This document shows positions 3,922 through 61,851 of a stretch of DNA of 64,000 nucleotides, piece after piece. Made by a program: the position numbers and the translations under genes. The notes beneath the pieces are model-generated. The model did not search any database, had not been told where the DNA came from, and saw only the letters and a list, made by a program, of their open reading frames with translations. Within the stretch, counting starts at the first letter, position 1, and every line of letters begins with the position of its first letter. Source of the DNA: Patescibacteria group bacterium (GTDB lineage Bacteria > Patescibacteriota > Microgenomatia > UBA1400 > PJMF01); NCBI GenBank assembly GCA_049322655.1, contig JBMORP010000006.1:13863-77862 (forward strand). Reading direction: 5' to 3'.

Positions 3922-4407
3922 ATGGACATTCAATTACCACAGATTATTTATCAGCTGGTTAACTTTGGTGTTGTTTTTGGCGCAGTAACCTATCTTCTTT
4001 ATAAACCAGTACAAAAGATTTTAGACGATCGAGCTAAAAGAATTACCGATAGTTTAACTGAAGTTGAAAAAATTGAGGCTGAAAAAGAAAGAATGGCTAC
4101 GCTGAAAAGTAAAGCTAAAAGAGAAGCTGACAAAGAAGCTACTGAAATTTTGGAAGCCGCTCAAAAAACAGCTGAAAAAAACAAGAAAGAGTTAGTAAAT
4201 AAAACCAAGGAAGCTCTTCAAGAAGAAATGAAAAAGGCTCAAGCCTCTTGGCAAGAAGAGAAGAAAAAACTACTAGCTGATTCCAAGAAGCAGATGGTTG
4301 ATGCTGTGATCGAAGTTAGCTCTTTGGTTCTAGGTAAGAAACTTGACGTTAAAACAGATAACAAGTTTATTGCCGATAATTTAGAAAAAATCCTTAAGGA
4401 TATTTAA
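3922..4407 (+). CDS. atpF: F0F1 ATP synthase subunit b
   Basis: N-terminal TM helix followed by a long charged coiled-coil; position in the operon. Confidence 0.8.
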   Translation: MDIQLPQIIYQLVNFGVVFGAVTYLLYKPVQKILDDRAKRITDSLTEVEKIEAEKERMATLKSKAKREADKEATEILEAAQKTAEKNKKELVNKTKEALQEEMKKAQASWQEEKKKLLADSKKQMVDAVIEVSSLVLGKKLDVKTDNKFIADNLEKILKDI

Positions 4408-29326: not shown

Positions 29327-29908
29327 TTAATCTAAAGAAACTTTATGATCTTTGGTTTCTGTATCACTCACAGCCAAATGAGAGCCTGAAGTGGCTGTTT
29401 CTAAACCTTTTTCTGACTTGAAACCGAATAAACCAGCAACGACATTAGATGGGAAAACCACTAGTTTCTGGTTAAAAGTTTGTGTTAAATCGATGACTGT
29501 TCTTCTAGCATAAGTAAGTTTATCAGCAGTATCAGTTAATTCATCCATAAACTTACTAACAGTGCCATCAGCTTTTATTTCTGGATTATCTTCAACAGCA
29601 ACCTGAATCTTTGGGATTAATGCTTGAACTGAAGCTAAAGCTTTTTCTAAATCGGCCGCTTTGCCAGTTTTGTCGGCTGTTTCAGCAGCTTTTCTGGCAT
29701 CAGTTAACATTTGAAAAATACCTTTTTCATGTTTTAAATAGCCTTTAACCGCTGTTTCTAGATTGGGAATCAAGTTAGCTTGTCTTTTCAATTGATTACC
29801 AATTTCTTGAATACTGGCATGAATTTGAGTTTTCAAGGTTTGCAGAGAATTGTAAACACCAATAATGTAGAAGATTACTACACCAGCTATAACGATAAAA
29901 ATTAACAT
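29327..29908 (-). CDS. lemA: LemA family protein
   Basis: N-terminal TM plus YNSLQTLKTQI...NLIPNLETAVKGY typical of LemA. Confidence 0.8.
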   Translation of the reverse strand: MLIFIVIAGVVIFYIIGVYNSLQTLKTQIHASIQEIGNQLKRQANLIPNLETAVKGYLKHEKGIFQMLTDARKAAETADKTGKAADLEKALASVQALIPKIQVAVEDNPEIKADGTVSKFMDELTDTADKLTYARRTVIDLTQTFNQKLVVFPSNVVAGLFGFKSEKGLETATSGSHLAVSDTETKDHKVSLD

Positions 29909-29982
29909 ATCAGTCCTTTGGTCAAATAACTACTGGGGATAGTATAGCAAATTAGTTAATTTTTGTTGGAACTTGAATTTAC

Positions 29983-30010
29983 TTACAAAATTAGAATTAT
30001 TTGCTATAAT
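29983..30010 (+). promoter_or_regulatory. Putative promoter for tRNA-Asp (TTACAA-16nt-TGCTATAAT)
   Basis: Hexamers read from the sequence, about 33 nt upstream of the tRNA 5' end. Confidence 0.4.
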
Positions 30011-30042
30011 TACGGTTCTGTTCTTTTAACATCAAGTCAAGT

Positions 30043-30115
30043 GGGCCCGTGGTGTAGTGGTTAACATGCTTCCCTGTCACGGAAGAGATCGCCAGTTCGA
30101 TCCTGGTCGGGCTCG
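30043..30115 (+). tRNA. tRNA-Asp (anticodon GTC)
   Basis: Manual cloverleaf: acceptor GGGCCCG/CGGGCTC (one G-U), anticodon stem CTTCC/GGAAG, loop CTGTCAC, T-loop TTCGATC. 73 nt; CCA not encoded. Confidence 0.9.
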
Positions 30116-30123
30116 CAGGTATG

Positions 30124-30152
30124 AAAAAATCTCCATTCTGGAGATTTTTTTG
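30124..30152 (+). terminator. Rho-independent terminator after tRNA-Asp
   Basis: AAAATCTCCA-TTC-TGGAGATTTTTTT. Confidence 0.7.
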
Positions 30153-30232
30153 TAGCTACAGCTCATAATAAAGGCAACCTTGGTGGGTTGGTTAATCTTC
30201 ATATTTTATTGCTAAAATTAGACCTATAATAT

Positions 30233-30261
30233 TTGACAAATAAGTTATATTCAATTATAAT
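30233..30261 (+). promoter_or_regulatory. Perfect sigma70 consensus promoter TTGACA-17nt-TATAAT
   Basis: Exact consensus hexamers with a 17-nt spacer read directly from the sequence; about 160 nt upstream of the small peptide ORF. Confidence 0.6.
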
Positions 30262-30422
30262 TGTTGGTATATAAAACTTAGTGTACTGCACACTGCTGTT
30301 TTAAAATAAAAGGTAAGCAATTTATTTGCTTTCTTTCTTGAGTAAGGGCATTCATTTTAGGTATTGGTCAAGCTGATACTTAAATTGAATGCCATTATCA
30401 TTCTGAAAGGAGGTGAAATGTA

Positions 30423-30548
30423 ATGGCTACTTGTCAGCATTCTTGGTATACCAAGTCATATTTTCCGCACAGATTTTTGTTCTGGCGGTACATTTGGCAA
30501 AAGTGTACTAAATGCAATGCTTGGAGAATCAAACGATACTCTAAGTAA
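30423..30548 (+). CDS. Small ORF (41 aa) encoding a highly cationic Trp/Cys-rich peptide, MATCQHSWYTKSYFPHRFLFWRYIWQKCTKCNAWRIKRYSK; candidate leaderless-bacteriocin-like peptide
   Basis: Not in the ORF track (under 60 aa). Preceded by AAAGGAGGTG, the strongest Shine-Dalgarno site in the window, then ATG-TAA-(A)TG. Net charge +9 with no Asp/Glu. Followed by an intrinsic terminator and an ABC-2 exporter. Confidence 0.45.
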   Translation: MATCQHSWYTKSYFPHRFLFWRYIWQKCTKCNAWRIKRYSK

Positions 30549-30552
30549 AAAA

Positions 30553-30581
30553 AGAGCCGTCTCGGAAGGGACGGCTTTTCT
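30553..30581 (+). terminator. Stem-loop with short U-tract (candidate partial terminator/attenuator) between the small ORF and the ABC ATPase gene
   Basis: AGCCGTC-TCGGAAGG-GACGGCT followed by TTTC. Lies 15 nt before the ABC ATPase ATG and overlaps a TGGTATACT extended -10-like element. Confidence 0.5.
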
Positions 30582-30595
30582 GGTATACTTACCAG

Positions 30596-31534
30596 ATGAA
30601 AACTGTGCTGAAAGTAGCTGATCTCACCAAGATCTATCCACCAGAAAAAAAAGGTGGCAAGTCTTTTACTGCTTTGGACGGTGTATCTTTTGAGTTAAAA
30701 GCAGGAGAAATCTTAGGTTTATTAGGTCCCAATGGGGCTGGTAAATCTACTACTATCTCGATTTTACTGGGTAACTTATCGGCAAATTCTGGAACAGTTG
30801 AGTATTTTGGTAAAGAATTTAACCAACATCGTAGTGAGATTTTGGATCAAGTCACTTTTGCTAGCACCTATATCAAAATGCCATGGAGACTTTCGGTCAT
30901 GGAAAACCTTCGGGTCTACTCTCTTTTATACGGTGTGGAGAAAAAGGTTTTCTTGGAGAGAGCAGAAAAATTTTTAAAGTTTTTTGAGGTTTGGTCACAA
31001 AGAGACAAAACCATGAATAATTTATCTGCTGGTCAGATTACCAGAATTATGTTGGCTAAAGCCTTTATTCCCCATCCTAAAATAGTGTTATTGGATGAGC
31101 CAACTGCTTCTTTGGATCCAGATATTGCCCATCAAGTCAGAGACTTTATTAAGCAACAACAGGGCAAGTTTAATACCAGTATTTTATATACCTCTCACAA
31201 TATGGACGAAGTAGCTGATGTCTGTGATCAAGTAATGTTTCTTAAAAATGGCAAGATTATTGCTCACGACAAGCCAGAGAACTTAGCTCAATCAGTCTCG
31301 GTGGCCAAAATGACCTTGAGGATTAAAGATGGATTAAAAAGGGTGAATCGATTCTCCAAAGAGCAAAACTTGAAAATAGAAGTAGTTGATCGAGATGCCA
31401 TGATCGAAATAGATGAACAAGAAGTAGCTGGTTTTTTGGCTTTATTGGCTAGTGAGGATATTACTTACTCACAAATCAGTATCGATAAACCCACTTTAGA
31501 AGACTATTTTTTGACCATTGGTGGTAAGAAATAA
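30596..31534 (+). CDS. ABC transporter ATP-binding protein (ABC-2 exporter type)
   Basis: Walker A GPNGAGKST, signature LSAGQ, Walker B ILLDEPT, 80-aa C-terminal extension. No SD; possibly leaderless. Confidence 0.85.
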   Translation: MKTVLKVADLTKIYPPEKKGGKSFTALDGVSFELKAGEILGLLGPNGAGKSTTISILLGNLSANSGTVEYFGKEFNQHRSEILDQVTFASTYIKMPWRLSVMENLRVYSLLYGVEKKVFLERAEKFLKFFEVWSQRDKTMNNLSAGQITRIMLAKAFIPHPKIVLLDEPTASLDPDIAHQVRDFIKQQQGKFNTSILYTSHNMDEVADVCDQVMFLKNGKIIAHDKPENLAQSVSVAKMTLRIKDGLKRVNRFSKEQNLKIEVVDRDAMIEIDEQEVAGFLALLASEDITYSQISIDKPTLEDYFLTIGGKK

Positions 31535-31537
31535 AAG

Positions 31538-32332
31538 ATGAAAATACATAGAATCGAAGCCCTATTTTTAAGACACCTCTACCCACTCAGACGTGATTTT
31601 GATTTGTTGTCAGATATGATTTATTGGCCATTGATTGATACGCTAATCTGGGGAATCACGGGGCAATGGCTCAGCAAAGCTGGCAATGATGCTGGAGGCG
31701 TGGGAGCGTTATTGATCTCATTATTAATGGGTTTGGTTTTATGGAATGTGATTTGGCGTGCCCAAGCAGAAATTGCTCGCAACCTGATGGATGAGATTTG
31801 GAATAATAATCTGATCAATTTATTCTCTACTCCATTGAGAATGGATGAATGGGTTATTTCTGTCTTGCTGTTGTCGATTGTTAAAACCGGTGTAACGATG
31901 CTGATGTTATTACCAGCTATTTTCTTGTTGTACTCAGTTAACGTTTTTGAGTTGGGCTGGTGGTTACCAGTCTTCTTTTTAAGCACCACGATGACTGGGT
32001 GGTGGATGGGCTTTGTTTCTGCTGGGATTGTTCTGCGTTATGGTCCCAAGTCACAAACGGTAATCTGGACTTTGCCAGGAATTTTACTGCCTTTTAGTGC
32101 TATTTATTTCCCCTTAGCTCAATTACCCAGTTGGATTCAACCGATCAGTAGAGTCATTCCAACCACGTATATTTTTGAATCAATGAGATCATTAATCAAT
32201 GGAGGTGAGGTTGACTTATCATTAATCTTTTTAAGTTTTGGCTTAAATTTTATCTTTTTAGGTTTTGCTTTTTGGCATTTTATTAAAAGCTTTAAATATA
32301 GTGTTGAGTTGGGCTTAGGCAGATTTAACTAA
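31538..32332 (+). CDS. ABC-2 type transporter permease
   Basis: Six predicted TM helices; 3-nt gap from the ATPase gene. Confidence 0.75.
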   Translation: MKIHRIEALFLRHLYPLRRDFDLLSDMIYWPLIDTLIWGITGQWLSKAGNDAGGVGALLISLLMGLVLWNVIWRAQAEIARNLMDEIWNNNLINLFSTPLRMDEWVISVLLLSIVKTGVTMLMLLPAIFLLYSVNVFELGWWLPVFFLSTTMTGWWMGFVSAGIVLRYGPKSQTVIWTLPGILLPFSAIYFPLAQLPSWIQPISRVIPTTYIFESMRSLINGGEVDLSLIFLSFGLNFIFLGFAFWHFIKSFKYSVELGLGRFN

Positions 32333-32333
32333 G

Positions 32334-32996
32334 TTATTTTTCTATTTTTTGAATGCCAAATGTTTCTTGGATCACAAAAGTGTCATTATTTTTTTCTAGT
32401 TTGATATAAGCAGTGTTATCAATACTGCCATGTGGTAGTTCTGCGTATTCTGCCCACTCAAGGTAGATCAAAAAAGTTCTCATAGCTGCACCATGGGTGA
32501 CAATCAGATTATTCTTTTCTTTGGTTAAATCGGCTGTTTTATTAAAGAAGGTTAAAAATCTGTTAATAATTGATTGATCTGTTTCTATATCCAAGACTTG
32601 ATGTTTAAACCGTTCTTCTTTTGGTAGGTTATCTCTTGCTTCAAGTAAGTCCTTAAGTTCTTGTTGAAAATCAGCAATTTTTCTACCCTCATAACTACCT
32701 AAATACATTTCTCGTAACAATTCATCTGTTTTCACTTCCAGAATATTTCTCTCTTCGGCAATTAATTGAGCTGTCTTATGAGCTCTTTTTAGATCGGAAG
32801 CAAAAACATTATCAAATTTCACGTCTTTTAGTTTTTTACTTAATTTTTTTGCTTGCTGGATGCCATTATCATTGAGTTCGATATCAATATGACCTTGAAT
32901 AAGCTTTTGAGCATTATAGGGAGTTTCTCCATGTCTAATAATATAAAAGGTAGTTGGTTTCAGCATAGCAGGTTTTGATTCTACCATTTTTCCCAT
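32334..32996 (-). CDS. Histidine phosphatase family protein (phosphoglycerate mutase-like)
   Basis: RHGETPYN catalytic RHG motif; a second His later in the sequence (VTHGAAMR). Confidence 0.75.
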   Translation of the reverse strand: MGKMVESKPAMLKPTTFYIIRHGETPYNAQKLIQGHIDIELNDNGIQQAKKLSKKLKDVKFDNVFASDLKRAHKTAQLIAEERNILEVKTDELLREMYLGSYEGRKIADFQQELKDLLEARDNLPKEERFKHQVLDIETDQSIINRFLTFFNKTADLTKEKNNLIVTHGAAMRTFLIYLEWAEYAELPHGSIDNTAYIKLEKNNDTFVIQETFGIQKIEK

Positions 32997-41553: not shown

Positions 41554-42072
41554 ATGTCTACTCTCCCCAGAGTTCATGTTGTTAATGATGAAGAAGCCAA
41601 GGGTGAGGTCAAAGCACTTTTTGAAAAAATGATTGAACAAAAAGGCGGAGTGCCTAAATGGATGGGCGTGATGGCTAATTGTGGTGATGTGTTAATGGGT
41701 TTTTTTGCTTTATTTAAAGCAACCATGGATGATTCTCCGCTTAGTGCTGAATTAAAGTGGCGGATTGCTTATCATATTTCTGAACTCAATAAGTGTGAGT
41801 TTTGTGTCAGTGTGTCAGAAATGCAGTTAGAGCAATTTGGACTGAGCAAAGAGGAAATGAAGTTGATTAGACAAGCAGCTACAGGAAGAGATGCTTTGGC
41901 TATGGAGTATGCTGAGGCAGTTAATGATCATGCTTATAAAATCGATCCAGCTTTGTTGGAAAAAGTAAAACTAGCTTTTTCTGATGAAGAGTTGGTTGAG
42001 TTAACTAGTGTGGTTGGTTTGTTCAACTTTATTAACAGATTTAACGACGCTTTGGGGGTTTTACCAGATTAG
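41554..42072 (+). CDS. Carboxymuconolactone decarboxylase (CMD)/AhpD-like family protein
   Basis: LNKCEFCVSVSE-type CxxC core in an all-helical 172-aa protein. Confidence 0.5.
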   Translation: MSTLPRVHVVNDEEAKGEVKALFEKMIEQKGGVPKWMGVMANCGDVLMGFFALFKATMDDSPLSAELKWRIAYHISELNKCEFCVSVSEMQLEQFGLSKEEMKLIRQAATGRDALAMEYAEAVNDHAYKIDPALLEKVKLAFSDEELVELTSVVGLFNFINRFNDALGVLPD

Positions 42073-42095
42073 AAAAATAACTTTATCCGAGTTTT

Positions 42096-42125
42096 GCAAA
42101 AACCAGCCTAGTGGCTGGTTTTTGG
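42096..42125. terminator. Bidirectional rho-independent terminator between the CMD-like gene (+) and tRNA-Lys (-)
   Basis: AAAAACCAGCC-TAGT-GGCTGGTTTTT. Confidence 0.7.
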
Positions 42126-42159
42126 TGTTTTTGTGTTTAGGACTAGTTAGGTCCCTTAG

Positions 42160-51414: not shown

Positions 51415-51440
51415 AAAAAGCTCCATACGGAGCTTTTTTA
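51415..51440. terminator. Bidirectional rho-independent terminator after tRNA-Gly(CCC) and after gene 51438..51749 (-)
   Basis: AAAAAGCTCC-ATAC-GGAGCTTTTTT. Confidence 0.7.
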
Positions 51441-51749
51441 ACTTTTATTTTCTTTTTTAATAGTTTTCCAATGATAAAAATAAACTGGTCCACCAACCAG
51501 CATCATGGCTAGGCTATTGCTAAATTGTCTTTTTCTTTGATTGGCTTGTTCTTCTTCATACATTTTTTTGTTTTGTTCTCTGATGGCAGGAGACTCTGTT
51601 TCGGCATAGTAGTAACCATAATCATTAACTTTAAACACATAAGTTTTTAGGGTAAGATCCACGATTTGGATGCTACCAATAATTAAAATTAGTAAGCCGA
51701 CAAAAGAAAAAAGATACAAGTAAAGCAAACGTAAGTTGAGTTTCATCAT
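51438..51749 (-). CDS. Small membrane protein (103 aa, two TM helices), unknown function
   Basis: Hydrophobic helices LLYLYLFSFVGLLILIIGSI and LAMMLVGGPVYFY; inside the tRNA-bounded island. Confidence 0.45.
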   Translation of the reverse strand: MMKLNLRLLYLYLFSFVGLLILIIGSIQIVDLTLKTYVFKVNDYGYYYAETESPAIREQNKKMYEEEQANQRKRQFSNSLAMMLVGGPVYFYHWKTIKKENKS

Positions 51750-51776
51750 TAGCCTTTCAACTATCAGTTTACCATT

Positions 51777-51803
51777 ATAAAAAAAGCTCCGTATATAGGA
51801 GCT
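51777..51803 (-). terminator. Rho-independent terminator (minus strand) downstream of gene 51890..52195
   Basis: On the minus strand: AGCTCC-TATATAC-GGAGCT followed by TTTTTT. Confidence 0.6.
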
Positions 51804-51889
51804 CAGATAAATGTTTTTGTTAAAGCCACACTGATTTTTAGTTTTTCAATGGAAGAGGAGGCGCACATGAGTTGTGCACCTCCTCTTTT

Positions 51890-52195
51890 CTAAGGGTACA
51901 AAACCTCATCCACATGGTCTTTCCAGTCATCAGGAATCGGGAAAATTGGTGAGTAAGCATAAATCAGGTGCTGCACCAACGATCCGATAGCTATTGACAG
52001 GATAATCCAAAGTCCAGGTTTTACGTGGATGGAAATCACGAAAAAAGCAATCATTGCAAGAACCATCACATTGTGGTGATAGTTATACTTCAGCGTTTTC
52101 GTAATTTTCCAAAGGAGGAAGGTCAGTACGTTTCCGGCTACTGCCTGGGCTAACGCCCAAAGTACAATCCAGATAATCCAAAGATGTGTGTTCAT
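51890..52195 (-). CDS. Small membrane protein (101 aa, about 3 TM helices), GC-enriched relative to surroundings
   Basis: RBS GAGAGG 7 nt before the ATG. Hydrophobic helices. A 150-nt stretch that I counted is about 44% GC, against about 35% background. Confidence 0.5.
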   Translation of the reverse strand: MNTHLWIIWIVLWALAQAVAGNVLTFLLWKITKTLKYNYHHNVMVLAMIAFFVISIHVKPGLWIILSIAIGSLVQHLIYAYSPIFPIPDDWKDHVDEVLYP

Positions 52196-52241
52196 AGTTT
52201 ACCTCTCGTTTTTTTACTCTCTCCTGTTTTACCAGGAGAGG

Positions 52242-52288
52242 CTTGGGGAAAATAAAACTTATTATAAATAAGCTTTATTTTCCCCAAG
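52242..52288. repeat. 21-bp near-perfect inverted repeat (CTTGGGGAAAATAAAACTTAT / ATAAGCTTTATTTTCCCCAAG) with 5-nt spacer, adjacent to a second hairpin (52219..52240, CTCTCCTG-TTTTAC-CAGGAGAG)
   Basis: Read directly from the sequence; one mismatch in 21 bp; no flanking U-tract on either strand, so it is not a canonical terminator. Confidence 0.7.
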
Positions 52289-52435
52289 TACATAGAGGTA
52301 GCTAAAATCAGTGTGGCAGTATTCTGCTAATAATAAAGATTAGTTTGAAAGCAATTTTCATTTAAACTTTATTATTAATTTTAAAGAACCTGTCCATTAT
52401 ATCTTACATCCTATAATTTGTCAATATAAGACTAT

Positions 52436-59546: not shown

Positions 59547-60503
59547 ATGACAAAACTACAAGCACAACTAGCTCGTGAATTTCCTGATTACTTATTTCAG
59601 TTTGATTTACCAATGGCTCAAAAAACCTATTTTAAAATTGGTGGTCCGGCTGAGATTTATATTGAATTAAGTGACAAAAAGCGAATTTCTGCTTTGGTTA
59701 ATTGGGCCAAACAAAATCAAGTTAAATTTAAATTATTTGGTGGTGGCAGCAACGTCATTGTGGCCGATACAGGGATTAAAGGTTTGGTGATCAAGGTTGT
59801 TTATGACCGAATTAACTTTAGTAAAGTTGGAGAACAAGGTAAGTTTTTAGTTGGAGCTGGAGTTAAAACGGCTTTGGCAGTGAGAAAAACAGTTGATTTT
59901 GGTTATACAGGTTTGGAGTACTTTTTGGGTGTGCCTGGGACAATTGGTGGAGCTGTTTACAATAATGCTCATTACTTGGAAGATTTGATCGGGCAGCACA
60001 TCACCCGGGTGGAAATTTTGAATGACGCCGGAGAGTTTGTTTGGTTAGATCAGCAGAGTTGTGATTTTGGTTATGATAGTTCAAGATTCCAAAAGACCAA
60101 AGAAATTATTTATCAAGTTGAGTTTTTATTAAATCAAGGGAATAAGGATGAATCACTAGCTTTAATTAAAAAAGCAACTGAATACCGAGCCAAAACTCAA
60201 CCACTTGGTTTGCCGAGTTCAGGTTGTATTTTCCAAAATGTGCCCAATAATCCATCATTAAAACAACAGTTTCCTCAGTTTGCTGACAGGCAACATGTAC
60301 CAGGCGGTTTTCTCATTGATCAAGCAGGTTTAAAAGGTGTTAATGAAGGTGATATTGAAGTCAGTGAAAAGCATGCAGCCTTTTTTGTTAATCATGGTAG
60401 TGGCACAGCTGAACAAGTAAAAAAATTAATAGCTAAAGTAAAATCCGTAGTTGAGGAAAAATTTTCAGTTGAGCTAAAAGAAGAAGTCTTTTGGCTAGAA
60501 TAG
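59547..60503 (+). CDS. murB: UDP-N-acetylenolpyruvoylglucosamine reductase
   Basis: FAD-binding N-terminus (FKIGGPAEIYIEL...FGGGSNVIVAD) and C-terminal substrate domain. Confidence 0.85.
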   Translation: MTKLQAQLAREFPDYLFQFDLPMAQKTYFKIGGPAEIYIELSDKKRISALVNWAKQNQVKFKLFGGGSNVIVADTGIKGLVIKVVYDRINFSKVGEQGKFLVGAGVKTALAVRKTVDFGYTGLEYFLGVPGTIGGAVYNNAHYLEDLIGQHITRVEILNDAGEFVWLDQQSCDFGYDSSRFQKTKEIIYQVEFLLNQGNKDESLALIKKATEYRAKTQPLGLPSSGCIFQNVPNNPSLKQQFPQFADRQHVPGGFLIDQAGLKGVNEGDIEVSEKHAAFFVNHGSGTAEQVKKLIAKVKSVVEEKFSVELKEEVFWLE

Positions 60504-60513
60504 AAAGAAAATT

Positions 60514-61851
60514 ATGACAAAAGGCAAAACATCTTTTGTAATTACTGGTGGCACTCCTCTAAGAGGTAGTGTCAGAGTGAGTGGCGCTAAAAATGCCTCA
60601 TATAAACTGATGGTGGCAGCTTTGCTTGGTGATGAAGAATCTAGAATTTTAAACTTACCAGCTATCTCCGATGTGGCGATGGTGGGTGAAGTAATTTCTT
60701 CTCTCGGCGCCGAAGCAAAGCCAGCTGGAGAAGGTACTTATTTAATTAATCCACAAGGTTTAAACACTTTTTCTCTTGGTAAACAATATGGTGAAGTCTC
60801 ACGTGCTTCAACTATTTTCATTGCTCCTTTACTGATTAAATTTGGTGAAGCTAGAGTGCCTATGCCAGGAGGTGACAAGATTGGCAAAAGACCTTTAGAT
60901 CGTCATTTTGATGGGCTAAAAAAAATGGGTGCTACTTTTGAACAAGAAGCTGGCATGTTAATTGTTAAGGCAGATAAATTAGTTGGTACTAGGTATAAGT
61001 TTGCTAAGAATACTCATACTGGAACCGAAACCCTAATCATGGCAGCTGTTAGAGCTGAAGGTATTACTTATTTAGAAAATGCAGCCTTGGAACCAGAAAT
61101 TGATGATTTAATTGATTTTTTAAATGGTATGGGTGCCAAGATTAGAAGAACTGCTCACAAAACTATTGAAATTCAGGGTGTTGATAAATTGGGTGGCACG
61201 ATTCATCGTGTTATGCCAGATCGTAATGAAGCAGTCAGTTATGCTTGTGCAGCCATTGCTTCAAAAGGCGATATTATTGTAGAGAATGCTCGTGAAAAAG
61301 ATTTATTAGCTTTCTTATCTAAACTGGATGACATTGGTGCTGGTTATGAAGTTGGAGATTATGGTATTCGCTTCTTTTACAAAGGTGAGTTAAAAGCTAC
61401 CGATTTAGTAACAGAAATTCATCCTGGGTTTATGACAGATTGGCAGCCACTTTGGGCAACCTTGGTTTGTCATGCACACGGTACTAGTACTATTCATGAA
61501 ACCGTGATGCAAAATCGTTTCCAATATGTTGATGTTTTAAAACAGATGGGAGCTAGAATCGAAGAATATACTCCAGAAGTTAAGACTGATCCAGATGAGT
61601 TCTATAATTTTAATTGGCAGGATCGCAAGACTAGTGATATTAGAGCTATCAAGATTATTGGTCCAACTAAGTTCCAAGGTGGTGAGTTTGAGGTTCATGA
61701 CCTTAGAGCTGGGGCTACTGTGATGTTGGCCGCAATTAGTGGTGAAGGTGAAACTATTTTGCATAATGTTGAACAAATTGAGCGAGGTTATTCCAAGATT
61801 GATCAAAAACTAACTTCAATGGGGGCAAAAATCAAACGGGTCGAAGAGTAA
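60514..61851 (+). CDS. murA: UDP-N-acetylglucosamine 1-carboxyvinyltransferase; active-site Cys replaced by Asp (PGGDKIGKRP)
   Basis: SVRVSGAKNASYKLMVAALL and MPGGDKIGKRPLDRH align with E. coli LPGGCAIGARPVDLH. GAC codon at 60874..60876. Confidence 0.9.
   Translation: MTKGKTSFVITGGTPLRGSVRVSGAKNASYKLMVAALLGDEESRILNLPAISDVAMVGEVISSLGAEAKPAGEGTYLINPQGLNTFSLGKQYGEVSRASTIFIAPLLIKFGEARVPMPGGDKIGKRPLDRHFDGLKKMGATFEQEAGMLIVKADKLVGTRYKFAKNTHTGTETLIMAAVRAEGITYLENAALEPEIDDLIDFLNGMGAKIRRTAHKTIEIQGVDKLGGTIHRVMPDRNEAVSYACAAIASKGDIIVENAREKDLLAFLSKLDDIGAGYEVGDYGIRFFYKGELKATDLVTEIHPGFMTDWQPLWATLVCHAHGTSTIHETVMQNRFQYVDVLKQMGARIEEYTPEVKTDPDEFYNFNWQDRKTSDIRAIKIIGPTKFQGGEFEVHDLRAGATVMLAAISGEGETILHNVEQIERGYSKIDQKLTSMGAKIKRVEE

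Follow-up and report, generated by a model that had tools for sequence, protein, structure and literature searches.

The 64,000-nt stretch of a Patescibacteria group bacterium analysed here (contig JBMORP010000006.1, positions 13,863-77,862 of the forward strand; hereafter the window) contains what we consider, at a probability of about 60%, to be a monocistronic small-protein gene missed by annotation pipelines, with a translationally masked mRNA, a product that probably binds zinc and an accessory position beside a tRNA-Asp gene, the ABC-2 transporter genes downstream of it being a separate unit. CPR bacteria (Patescibacteria) have tiny genomes whose small-protein content is essentially uncharted, and no promoter or ribosome-binding site in 64 kb is stronger than those of this small open reading frame (sORF), yet it is found in no annotation. 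It provides a concrete, testable case in CPR of a conserved mini-protein controlled at the RNA level, and its analysis disposes of an attractive but unsupported ‘bacteriocin locus’ annotation that an earlier note on this DNA had proposed. Coordinates of all features are collected in Table 1.

Table 1. Features of the sORF locus and its neighbours, in window coordinates
Feature	Position	Strand	Remarks
tRNA-Asp	30043-30116	+	ARAGORN and Rfam; own terminator hairpin at about 30124-30150
sORF sigma-70 promoter, TTGACA-17-TATAAT	30233-30261	+	12/12 consensus match
Structured 5' leader	30268-30422	+	about 155 nt
Leader 5' hairpin	30272-30303	+	
122-nt hairpin	30311-30432	+	-44.5 kcal/mol; 5' arm and apex in leader
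CU-rich anti-SD tract	30328-30337	+	pairs with SD inside the 122-nt hairpin
Shine-Dalgarno (SD), AAAGGAGGTG	30406-30415	+	7 nt before ATG at 30423
ATG-TAA start-stop	30418-30423	+	last base is first base of the real ATG (30423)
sORF, 41-aa peptide MATCQHSWYTKSYFPHRFLFWRYIWQKCTKCNAWRIKRYSK	30423-30548	+	conserved in L034-L037
Two hairpins within coding region	30437-30515, 30518-30547	+	minimum-free-energy folds
Intrinsic terminator hairpin of sORF transcript	30552-30579	+	G+C-rich, -19.1 kcal/mol
ABC operon extended -10 box, TGGTATACT	30581-30589	+	6 nt before ATG
DrrA-like ABC ATPase	30596-31534	+	Pfam, NCBIfam
ABC-2 permease	31538-32332	+	Pfam, NCBIfam

Comparative evidence for a conserved small-protein gene

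The sORF translates exactly as the earlier note gave it, and a tblastn search with its product recovered a frame-preserving homologue, MWCSHQWYTKSYFPEKFLWFTFVWEKCTKCGRWRMKFL, in the relatives L034-L037 (E 1e-16, 62% identical over 34 residues). There the unit again lies directly after tRNA-Asp and comprises a promoter close to the consensus, a long leader, an SD, an ORF of 38 codons and a matching terminator. Between the window and L034, residues are identical at 21 of 34 codons, with synonymous changes at 11 of these 21, and differences at the three codon positions number 8, 9 and 18. The resulting pN of 0.25 vs pS of 0.85 describes, like the covariation presented below, a single pair, because there are only two distinct homologous sequences (the window type and the L034-L037 type). 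In 100,000 neutral simulations the count of identical residues never reached 21, and gap columns number 0 in the ORF core and 40 in the leader. The earlier note had regarded a frame broken by indels or stops in relatives as evidence against the ORF; the frame in L034-L037 is intact, contains neither and has changed mostly synonymously, and the sORF therefore survives this comparison. The earlier note had also suggested looking for conserved copies of the ORF next to ABC-2 pairs; the homologue has no such pair beside it. Overall, the pattern of substitution indicates that the sORF is a real, conserved small-protein gene that has gone unannotated.

Genes of this kind escape both gene callers and composition-based coding scores. 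Codon and amino-acid usage of the sORF resembles that of this genome's spurious ORFs (log-likelihood ratio, LLR, -0.23 per codon vs 0.39 +/- 0.14 for real genes), a ‘spurious ORF’ verdict that the comparative data overrule. No annotation pipeline called the gene, and as it was never called, a search of about 15 billion predicted proteins (phmmer, word-index search) found no homologue of its peptide; phmmer against 1.84 billion representatives likewise returned no relative except a chance-level repeat protein. Searches with the peptide against Pfam, NCBIfam and PDB, and by tblastn against phages and plasmids, were negative or at chance level. Back-translated 8-mer scans of IMG/VR and JGI metagenomes also gave no homologue, a weak negative, since every 8-mer of the L034 type carries at least one substitution and that type, which is present in JGI samples, was missed as well.

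Signals for transcription and translation

The exact promoter of the sORF is matched at the homologous position of L034 by TTGACA-17-TACAAT (11/12). It had been described as the sole perfect consensus promoter of the window, which holds for the plus strand only, as a second exact TTGACA-17-TATAAT occupies 52424..52396 on the minus strand. The 10-nt SD is as strong as claimed: the exact 10-mer has a single copy in the window, both strands (128 kb) taken together. In L034, GAAAGGAG precedes the ATG by about 10 nt, so that the spacing from SD to ATG is similar in both homologues. The ATG-TAA-ATG arrangement noticed earlier is also present, and the start-stop is probably incidental because it is absent from the only known homologue. 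Downstream of the ORF, the terminator-like hairpin proposed earlier exists and is kept in L034, its sense-strand tail there being rich in T; the reservation is that a terminator scan rates the window hairpin better on the minus strand (T7 tail), the tail on the plus strand being TTTTCTGG. Transcription from the consensus sigma-70 promoter to this intrinsic terminator would yield an RNA of about 310 nt.

A folded mRNA with a buried Shine-Dalgarno sequence

No 300-nt stretch of the 64 kb is more structured than the sORF mRNA, which stands out most among 425 scanned segments (z -13.8); its folding z is -11 for 30266-30600, and transcript-level values are -9.5 in the window and -8.8 in L034. The RNA would be folded nearly end to end. 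The fold is strand-specific (-113.7 kcal/mol on the plus strand vs -77 on the minus strand), and 18 of its 113 pairs on the plus strand are G-U. Comparison with L034 indicates that the structure has been maintained through compensatory changes: nine pairs differ on both sides, vs 0-2 in slid controls, and none of the 17 pairs of the apical helix is broken, although 4 differ in both bases and 3 in a single base. The coding-region hairpins persist as well: L034 retains consensus helices 6 and 7, in which one pair differs in both bases and two pairs in a single base.

In both homologues the predicted structure buries the SD. Within the 122-nt hairpin, GCUUUCUUUC pairs with GAAAGGAGGU, G-U pairs included, and L034 follows the same design with a CCUUCUUCUUU tract that pairs with its own SD; the predicted probability of an unpaired SD is 0.06 for the window and 0.14 for L034. 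Because the CU-rich tract pairs with this perfect SD, the transcript, although presumably abundant, would be translationally masked until the base of the hairpin opens, with temperature, RNA processing or the binding of some factor as candidate triggers; translation from the ATG at 30423 would then give a 41-aa basic, aromatic-rich peptide. The arrangement resembles SD-masking RNA thermometers and riboregulatory leaders in that weak A-U and G-U pairs join the SD to a tract rich in U and C. The whole hairpin, at -44.5 kcal/mol, seems too stable for a simple thermometer and would not melt, so that only its base could open. A search of 29500-31200 against Rfam 15 at gathering and permissive thresholds brought only the tRNA-Asp to threshold, the remaining matches being at chance level.

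A variable region beside tRNA-Asp

The sORF gene lies in a variable region adjoining a recurrent tRNA-Asp integration site. The left anchor is kept, with tRNA-Asp preceding the unit in both lineages that carry it, and an att-like duplication of the tRNA-Asp 3' end is found in the sORF-less relatives L020/L021/L024 and L038. In the sister genome L020 the block 30185-32334, which contains both the sORF and the ABC-2 pair, is missing, and what is left of the sORF unit in L020/L021 is the terminator hairpin alone (89% over 38 nt). As several close lineages have lost the gene or carry other DNA in its place, we regard it as accessory. The window holds no second copy of the element of the repeat or MITE kind, and blastn against phages and plasmids was negative or at chance level. 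A phage origin was also considered and rejected: the tRNA att 20-mer and 18-23-mers of the element gave a single chance 19-nt match in IMG/VR and otherwise no hits.

The neighbouring ABC-2 pair

Pfam families confirm the ATPase/permease pair that the earlier note had called apparently leaderless. The first gene starts 48 nt downstream of the sORF, has no SD and follows its own -10 box so closely that its transcript would begin at or near the start codon. This layout, TATACT-N6-8-start, recurs upstream of the ABC orthologues in L001, L002, L003 and L017, and within the window a leaderless -10 layout precedes 16 of 54 ORFs, vs 0-4 at control offsets. ABC homologues are numerous in CPR genomes (3485 at E <= 1e-60), and the pair occurs without the sORF in six loci (L001-L003, L016-L018); upstream of ATPase relatives with 67-81% identity the DNA is unalignable and the sORF absent. 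Conversely, no ABC gene lies within 6 kb of the sORF in L034-L037, where the gene after it is a 173-aa macro-like gene. The comparison indicates that the ABC-2 pair is an independent leaderless transcription unit, a neighbour of the sORF unit rather than a member of it, and because the transporter is a separate gene unit, the region does not constitute a bacteriocin-plus-exporter locus.

A basic, aromatic-rich peptide with candidate zinc ligands

The 41-aa peptide contains four Trp residues (W8, W21, W25, W34), one fewer than the earlier note had counted. Conservation begins at residue 4, and the whole product is 38-41 aa long, without an N-terminal leader or signal peptide; leaderless synthesis as such is a feature not specific to bacteriocins. 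Cys4, His6, Cys28, Cys31 and ten aromatic positions are kept between the window and L034, giving the conserved motif C-x-H-x-WYTKSYFP-x2-FL-x5-W-x-KCTKC-x2-WR-x-K. The peptide is hydrophilic (GRAVY -0.86), with no stretch long enough for a transmembrane helix, and its helical hydrophobic moment over residues 17-39 (0.18, below 69% of shuffles) indicates that it is not amphipathic, a judgement based on sequence measures because the AlphaFold model, run on the single sequence without an alignment, is a low-confidence helix (pLDDT 65). An hhalign comparison to P0121 repeats (CxHxW...CTKC) gave 80% probability with a target picked post hoc, and since each repeat contributes only about 24 bits, we treat this likeness as a hint.

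Two candidate metal-ligand pairs, C4-x-H6 and C28-x2-C31, are invariant in the 2 sequences, although C-x-H is not a canonical knuckle. Solely from these four invariant residues, we infer that the peptide is probably a zinc-binding mini-protein, in which Cys-x-His ... Cys-x-x-Cys would most likely coordinate a single zinc ion within a small fold resembling a zinc ribbon or knuckle; the metal-binding Cys peptide that the earlier note had mentioned as an alternative is thus the best-fitting reading. Its site of action is most likely intracellular, with nucleic acid or the ribosome as conceivable targets. A close parallel is with the C(P)XCG zinc-finger mu-proteins of Haloferax volcanii, which likewise stay below 70 aa, carry one conserved metal-ligand pair at each chain end (candidate ligands in our case), contain no enzymatic domain and are often unannotated (PMC11241148, PMC10716476). 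The sORF peptide differs in its first ligand pair, which is C-x-H rather than C(P)XCG, and is a 38-41-aa product, about 30% aromatic, of a CPR bacterial host; searches of Pfam, NCBIfam and PDB found no sequence homology to small zinc-finger proteins.

Alternative readings

The earlier note had proposed a leaderless class IId-like bacteriocin or host-directed peptide, exported or immunised against via the adjacent ABC-2 pair, which we now consider very unlikely. The peptide is real and, like class IId members such as aureocin A53, lacticin Q and enterocin L50 (PMC6131525, PMC6072434), short, cationic, Trp-containing (here also Tyr-rich) and leaderless; an ABC transporter is adjacent in this one genome, and the two are missing together from the sister genome. 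Against this, the sORF and the ABC-2 genes do not travel together, each occurring without the other in the relatives described above, and the ABC operon is transcribed separately, from a conserved leaderless promoter of its own. Leaderless bacteriocins are helical, amphipathic and saposin-like with a hydrophobic core (PMC6072434), whereas the sORF peptide, by sequence measures, is neither amphipathic nor helical, has conserved Cys at three positions as well as a conserved His and gives no HMM match (Pfam E <= 10; NCBIfam E <= 1). Immunity and accessory genes are absent, and a masked SD on the mRNA would be unexpected for a constitutively exported product. In another reading the element is regulatory, a cis-acting leader or attenuator that contains an upstream ORF and would govern the ABC operon through read-through at the terminator. 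The terminator does directly precede the ABC start, and sORF positions 30459-30476 are complementary to the ABC 5' end at 30599-30616, but the p value of this complementarity, about 0.04, is post hoc, the ABC orthologues lack the element and the element in L034 lacks the ABC pair. Lacking an SD and lying 6 nt behind its own -10 box, the ABC gene would be poorly translated from a read-through transcript, and we give this reading hardly any credence.

The masked SD is in line with a cis-locked toxic peptide of the type I toxin kind, in which the folded mRNA would block a harmful cationic peptide encoded by a selfish or stress element beside the tRNA; we regard this as unlikely, if the least so of the rivals. 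In aapA1/IsoA1 of Helicobacter pylori, an upstream anti-SD locks the SD and the primary transcript is translationally inert (PMC5416894, PMC6733600), and the sORF shares with aapA1-type toxin mRNAs a small ORF on a highly structured mRNA, a long leader that locks the SD from upstream and an accessory, patchy distribution, here among close lineages and next to a tRNA integration site. The promoter of the sORF is also strong. It differs in that its product is a hydrophilic Cys/His peptide rather than a membrane helix, with no transmembrane stretch, and in that no antisense RNA gene is detectable at either homologue: a simple consensus scan, which could miss an unusual promoter, found no promoter-like site on the opposite strand in L034 and only weak -10-like hexamers there in the window. 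The upstream region shows no significant complementarity and no partner RNA, and a search for a divergent or antisense antitoxin RNA gave nothing significant at either homologue. A 32-aa hydrophobic ORF in an alternative frame (GTG 30413) was rejected as a type I toxin, having no usable SD and no conservation in L034. A bolder reading makes the gene a cis-locked weapon, or an effector of host interaction, that an episymbiotic CPR bacterium deploys: a Trp-rich mini-protein stabilised by zinc, kept in store as a translationally locked mRNA, released on a cue (contact, temperature or stress) and exported in this strain by the ABC-2 pair. We think this quite improbable; if true, it would add a novel class of antimicrobial or toxin genes, locked in cis and without an antisense antitoxin.

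That the transcript is a non-coding structured sRNA with a fortuitous ORF has in its favour the extreme, strand-specific structure, the spurious-ORF-like codon usage and the lack of any pipeline gene call. The saturated synonymous against low non-synonymous change, the outcome of the neutral simulations, the absence of ORF indels and the perfect SD and ATG at conserved spacing in both homologues leave it with almost no probability, and coding conservation together with the simulations appears to have largely refuted it. A masked small-protein mRNA, our preferred reading, may nonetheless have a dual function as RNA plus peptide. SR1/SR1P of Bacillus subtilis is a dual-function sRNA of about 200-300 nt that encodes a small Cys-rich peptide. 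The sORF has no homology to it, and a target or base-pairing function of the sORF RNA would be hypothetical; what the two have in common is a structured RNA with its own promoter and terminator that encodes a peptide of about 40 aa.

Layout of the unit and identification of a homologue

Every feature that the earlier note listed around the 41-codon sORF (promoter, Shine-Dalgarno (SD) sequence, ATG-TAA, ORF, hairpin and ABC pair) was found in the sequence, although its peptide holds four tryptophans rather than five, and the promoter, said to be the only perfect consensus match, has an exact counterpart on the minus strand. A 3.9-kb stretch identical to the window is present in the Logan assembly of run SRR32167788, which carries no gene calls between LemA and the ABC ATPase. 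Assignment of this DNA to CPR bacteria is reasonable because homologues of the flanking proteins carry the names Patescibacteria, Pacebacteria or Microgenomates.

Features of the sORF unit, the ABC pair, the minus-strand unit and the tRNA-Asp duplications
Feature	Position	Strand	Remark
sORF promoter	30233-30261	+	exact TTGACA-17-TATAAT, consensus match
SD AAAGGAGGTG, 10 nt	30406-30415	+	sole copy in window, both strands
ATG-TAA start-stop	30418-30423	+	last base shared with sORF ATG at 30423
sORF, 41 codons	30423-30548	+	
G+C-rich hairpin (terminator)	30552-30579	+	3′ of sORF
Extended -10 box TGGTATACT of ABC ATPase	30581-30589	+	6 nt upstream of ATG
ABC ATPase	30596-31534	+	
ABC-2 permease	31538-32332	+	
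Second promoter	52424..52396	-	exact TTGACA-17-TATAAT
101-aa membrane-like ORF	52195..51890	-	no Pfam match
DUF5671 ORF	51749..51438	-	
tRNA-Asp 3′-end duplication	L020 3602-3810; L038 2602-2791		

Closer genomes were reached by searching with the LemA protein, encoded on the other side of tRNA-Asp. Four contigs from ENA and JGI assemblies (L034-L037; LemA 82% identical) contain, in order, tRNA-Asp, its terminator, TTGACA-17-TACAAT, a ~185-nt leader, an SD (GAAAGGAG, 10 nt before the ATG), a 38-codon ORF (MWCSHQWYTKSYFPEKFLWFTFVWEKCTKCGRWRMKFL) and the same terminator as the window sORF. The two peptides are 62% identical over 34 residues (tblastn, E 1e-16). The 34 aligned codons differ at 35 nucleotides, 18 of them third positions, without any indel, and 11 of the 21 identical residues have synonymous changes (pS 0.85, saturated; pN 0.25). 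When 35 substitutions were placed at random, none of 100,000 simulations retained at least 21 identical residues, and only 9% of outcomes were stop-free. Identity is 66% in the ORF core, where the alignment has no gap columns, and 56% in the leader, where it has 40. Together, the indel-free frame, the excess of pS over pN and the simulations show that the frame is under purifying selection as a protein, so the ORF proposed from sequence is borne out as a real, previously unannotated gene. Neither the ATG-TAA start-stop nor a hydrophobic ORF in another frame is conserved in the homologue. Before the homologue was found, a non-coding RNA had seemed as likely as a gene; purifying selection on the frame displaced that candidate.

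Standard searches and scores hid this gene. Rfam returned only tRNA-Asp, and no relative of the peptide was detectable in Pfam, NCBIfam, PDB, phages, plasmids or IMG/VR, or with a word-index search. Two scans of JGI metagenomes with back-translated 8-residue patterns also detected none; the first returned 600 stretches, possibly swamped by a padding tail added to the pattern. These scans missed the true 62%-identical homologue present in JGI samples because each 8-mer has a substitution, and such negatives are weak for peptides below 50 aa. The codon log-likelihood of the sORF (-0.23 per codon, vs 0.39 ± 0.14 in real genes) ranks it with spurious ORFs, a composition-based score that is misleading here given the comparative data.

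The peptide

Invariant in both homologues are M1, C4, H6, W8-P15 (WYTKSYFP), F18, L19, W25, K27-C31 (KCTKC), W34, R35 and K37, and aromatic character is kept at ten positions. The peptide is basic (~+9 in the window, ~+5 in L034) and hydrophilic (GRAVY -0.86), and is not amphipathic as a helix. The four ligand-type residues of the C-x-H and C-x-x-C motifs, which lie 21 residues apart, are invariant and suggest a small fold of the zinc-ribbon or knuckle-like type around one metal ion; an alignment-free AlphaFold model gave no useful information. Among 1.84 billion representative proteins, the sole match was P0121, a secreted-looking 444-aa protein with six repeats of CxHxW-x18-CTKC(N/G)xW and the same ligand spacing. 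Its repeats (~24 bits each in BLAST; hhalign probability 80%, for a target picked post hoc) may share the fold or may match by chance.

A structured mRNA

The sORF region is the top outlier among 425 300-nt windows (z -13.8; z = -11 for 30266-30600), folding at -113.7 kcal/mol on the plus strand and -77 on the minus strand, with G-U making up 18 of 113 pairs. The L034 transcript (-116.5 kcal/mol, z -8.8) has the same plan of a 5′ hairpin, a long hairpin, in-ORF hairpins and the terminator, and in both the SD is paired with a CU-rich tract at the base of the long hairpin (unpaired probability of the SD 0.06 in the window, 0.14 in L034). When the two sequences are aligned, both partners have changed in 9 of 60 consensus pairs; sliding the partners by 1-3 columns gives 0-2 such pairs. 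The 17-pair apical helix has four pairs changed on both sides, three on one side and none broken. This comparison of two sequences is supportive of a conserved structure, not conclusive. The low sequence identity of the leader argues against a ligand-binding riboswitch core, and a masking or stability element would fit better.

The minus-strand unit (52424..51438) shares this design of consensus promoter, masked SD and small protein: downstream of its promoter lies a ~200-nt leader (z -8.5) which base-pairs with the unit's SD, GAGAGG. Other structural outliers in the 300-nt scan, 60451-60750 (z -7.8) and 41851-42150 (z -6.2), have no Rfam match.

The ABC pair and the bacteriocin interpretation

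The ABC ATPase has no SD upstream of its start and instead a -10 box of its own. In 16 of 54 window ORFs of at least 120 aa, a TATAAT/TATACT-like box lies 5-9 nt before the start (0-4 at control offsets); leaderless genes are thus common across the window, and the ATPase start is typical of this genome. An SD-like motif occurs in only about a quarter of these ORFs. TATACT-N6-8-start also precedes the ABC orthologues in four relatives (L001, L002, L003, L017). Members of the ATPase family are widespread, numbering 3485 at E ≤ 1e-60, and neither the sORF nor its leader has a homologue in the readable ABC-bearing relatives (L001-L003, L016-L018). The ABC pair is a unit separate from the sORF.

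The earlier note read the two together as a leaderless bacteriocin with its exporter. The peptide's lack of a leader agrees with this, as a non-specific feature, but the three further features that were tested speak against it: there is no match to a bacteriocin family HMM, no amphipathic helical character and no co-inherited transporter. Both the function and the partner assigned to the sORF in that reading look wrong. What small probability the proposal retains comes from the adjacency of the units, in the window genome alone, and from the absence of the block 30185-32334 as a whole from the sister genome L020. The best-supported reading is instead a monocistronic, strongly transcribed, translationally masked accessory gene for a probably zinc-binding mini-protein, in a variable region adjoining tRNA-Asp. 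In aapA1-type toxin mRNAs the SD is sequestered by an upstream anti-SD sequence (PMC5416894, PMC6733600), and the sORF RNA masks its SD likewise; unlike type I toxins, however, its peptide lacks a membrane helix, and an antisense promoter was found in neither homologue. The protein layer resembles small zinc-finger μ-proteins (PMC11241148) but lacks their C(P)XCG pair. By the defining features tested, the sORF belongs to neither class; it represents a new small-protein family in CPR bacteria, whose mRNA is conserved and unusually structured.

Codons 13-18 of the sORF (30459-30476) are complementary to 30599-30616 (16 of 18 pairs including G-U), within the opening 21 nt of the leaderless ABC mRNA (post hoc p ~0.04); no ABC gene adjoins the L034 homologue.

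A variable region beside tRNA-Asp

Both flanks of L020 (GCA_964433225.1) match the window at 90-94% identity, but L020 has 276 nt in place of window 30185-32334. The sole remnant of the sORF unit there is the terminator (38 nt, 89%), which is preceded by an additional tRNA-Asp 3′ end, GATCCTGGTCGGGCTCGCAG; a similar att-like duplication occurs in L038. The last 20 nt of tRNA-Asp (window 30099-30118) recur 170-190 nt downstream in four relatives (L020, L021, L024, L038). These duplications are an att-like signature of integration at tRNA-Asp. Each lineage examined has different cargo between tRNA-Asp and the His_Phos_1 gene, which marks this as a variable region adjoining an integration site. 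Despite its broad conservation in the clade, the ABC-2 pair is missing at this site in L020; this absence, and the lack of any ATPase between 81% and 100% identity in the protein collection, indicate that the pair is itself variable cargo.

Directly before His_Phos_1, L034 carries a second uncalled sORF, MLIKMIIVRGFICPLCGEFHVTSIEVVEMIAL (4171-4266, minus strand; also in L035-L037), with a near-perfect SD (GAAGGAGGTGA), a ~200-nt leader and a terminator, which may encode another small CxxC protein.
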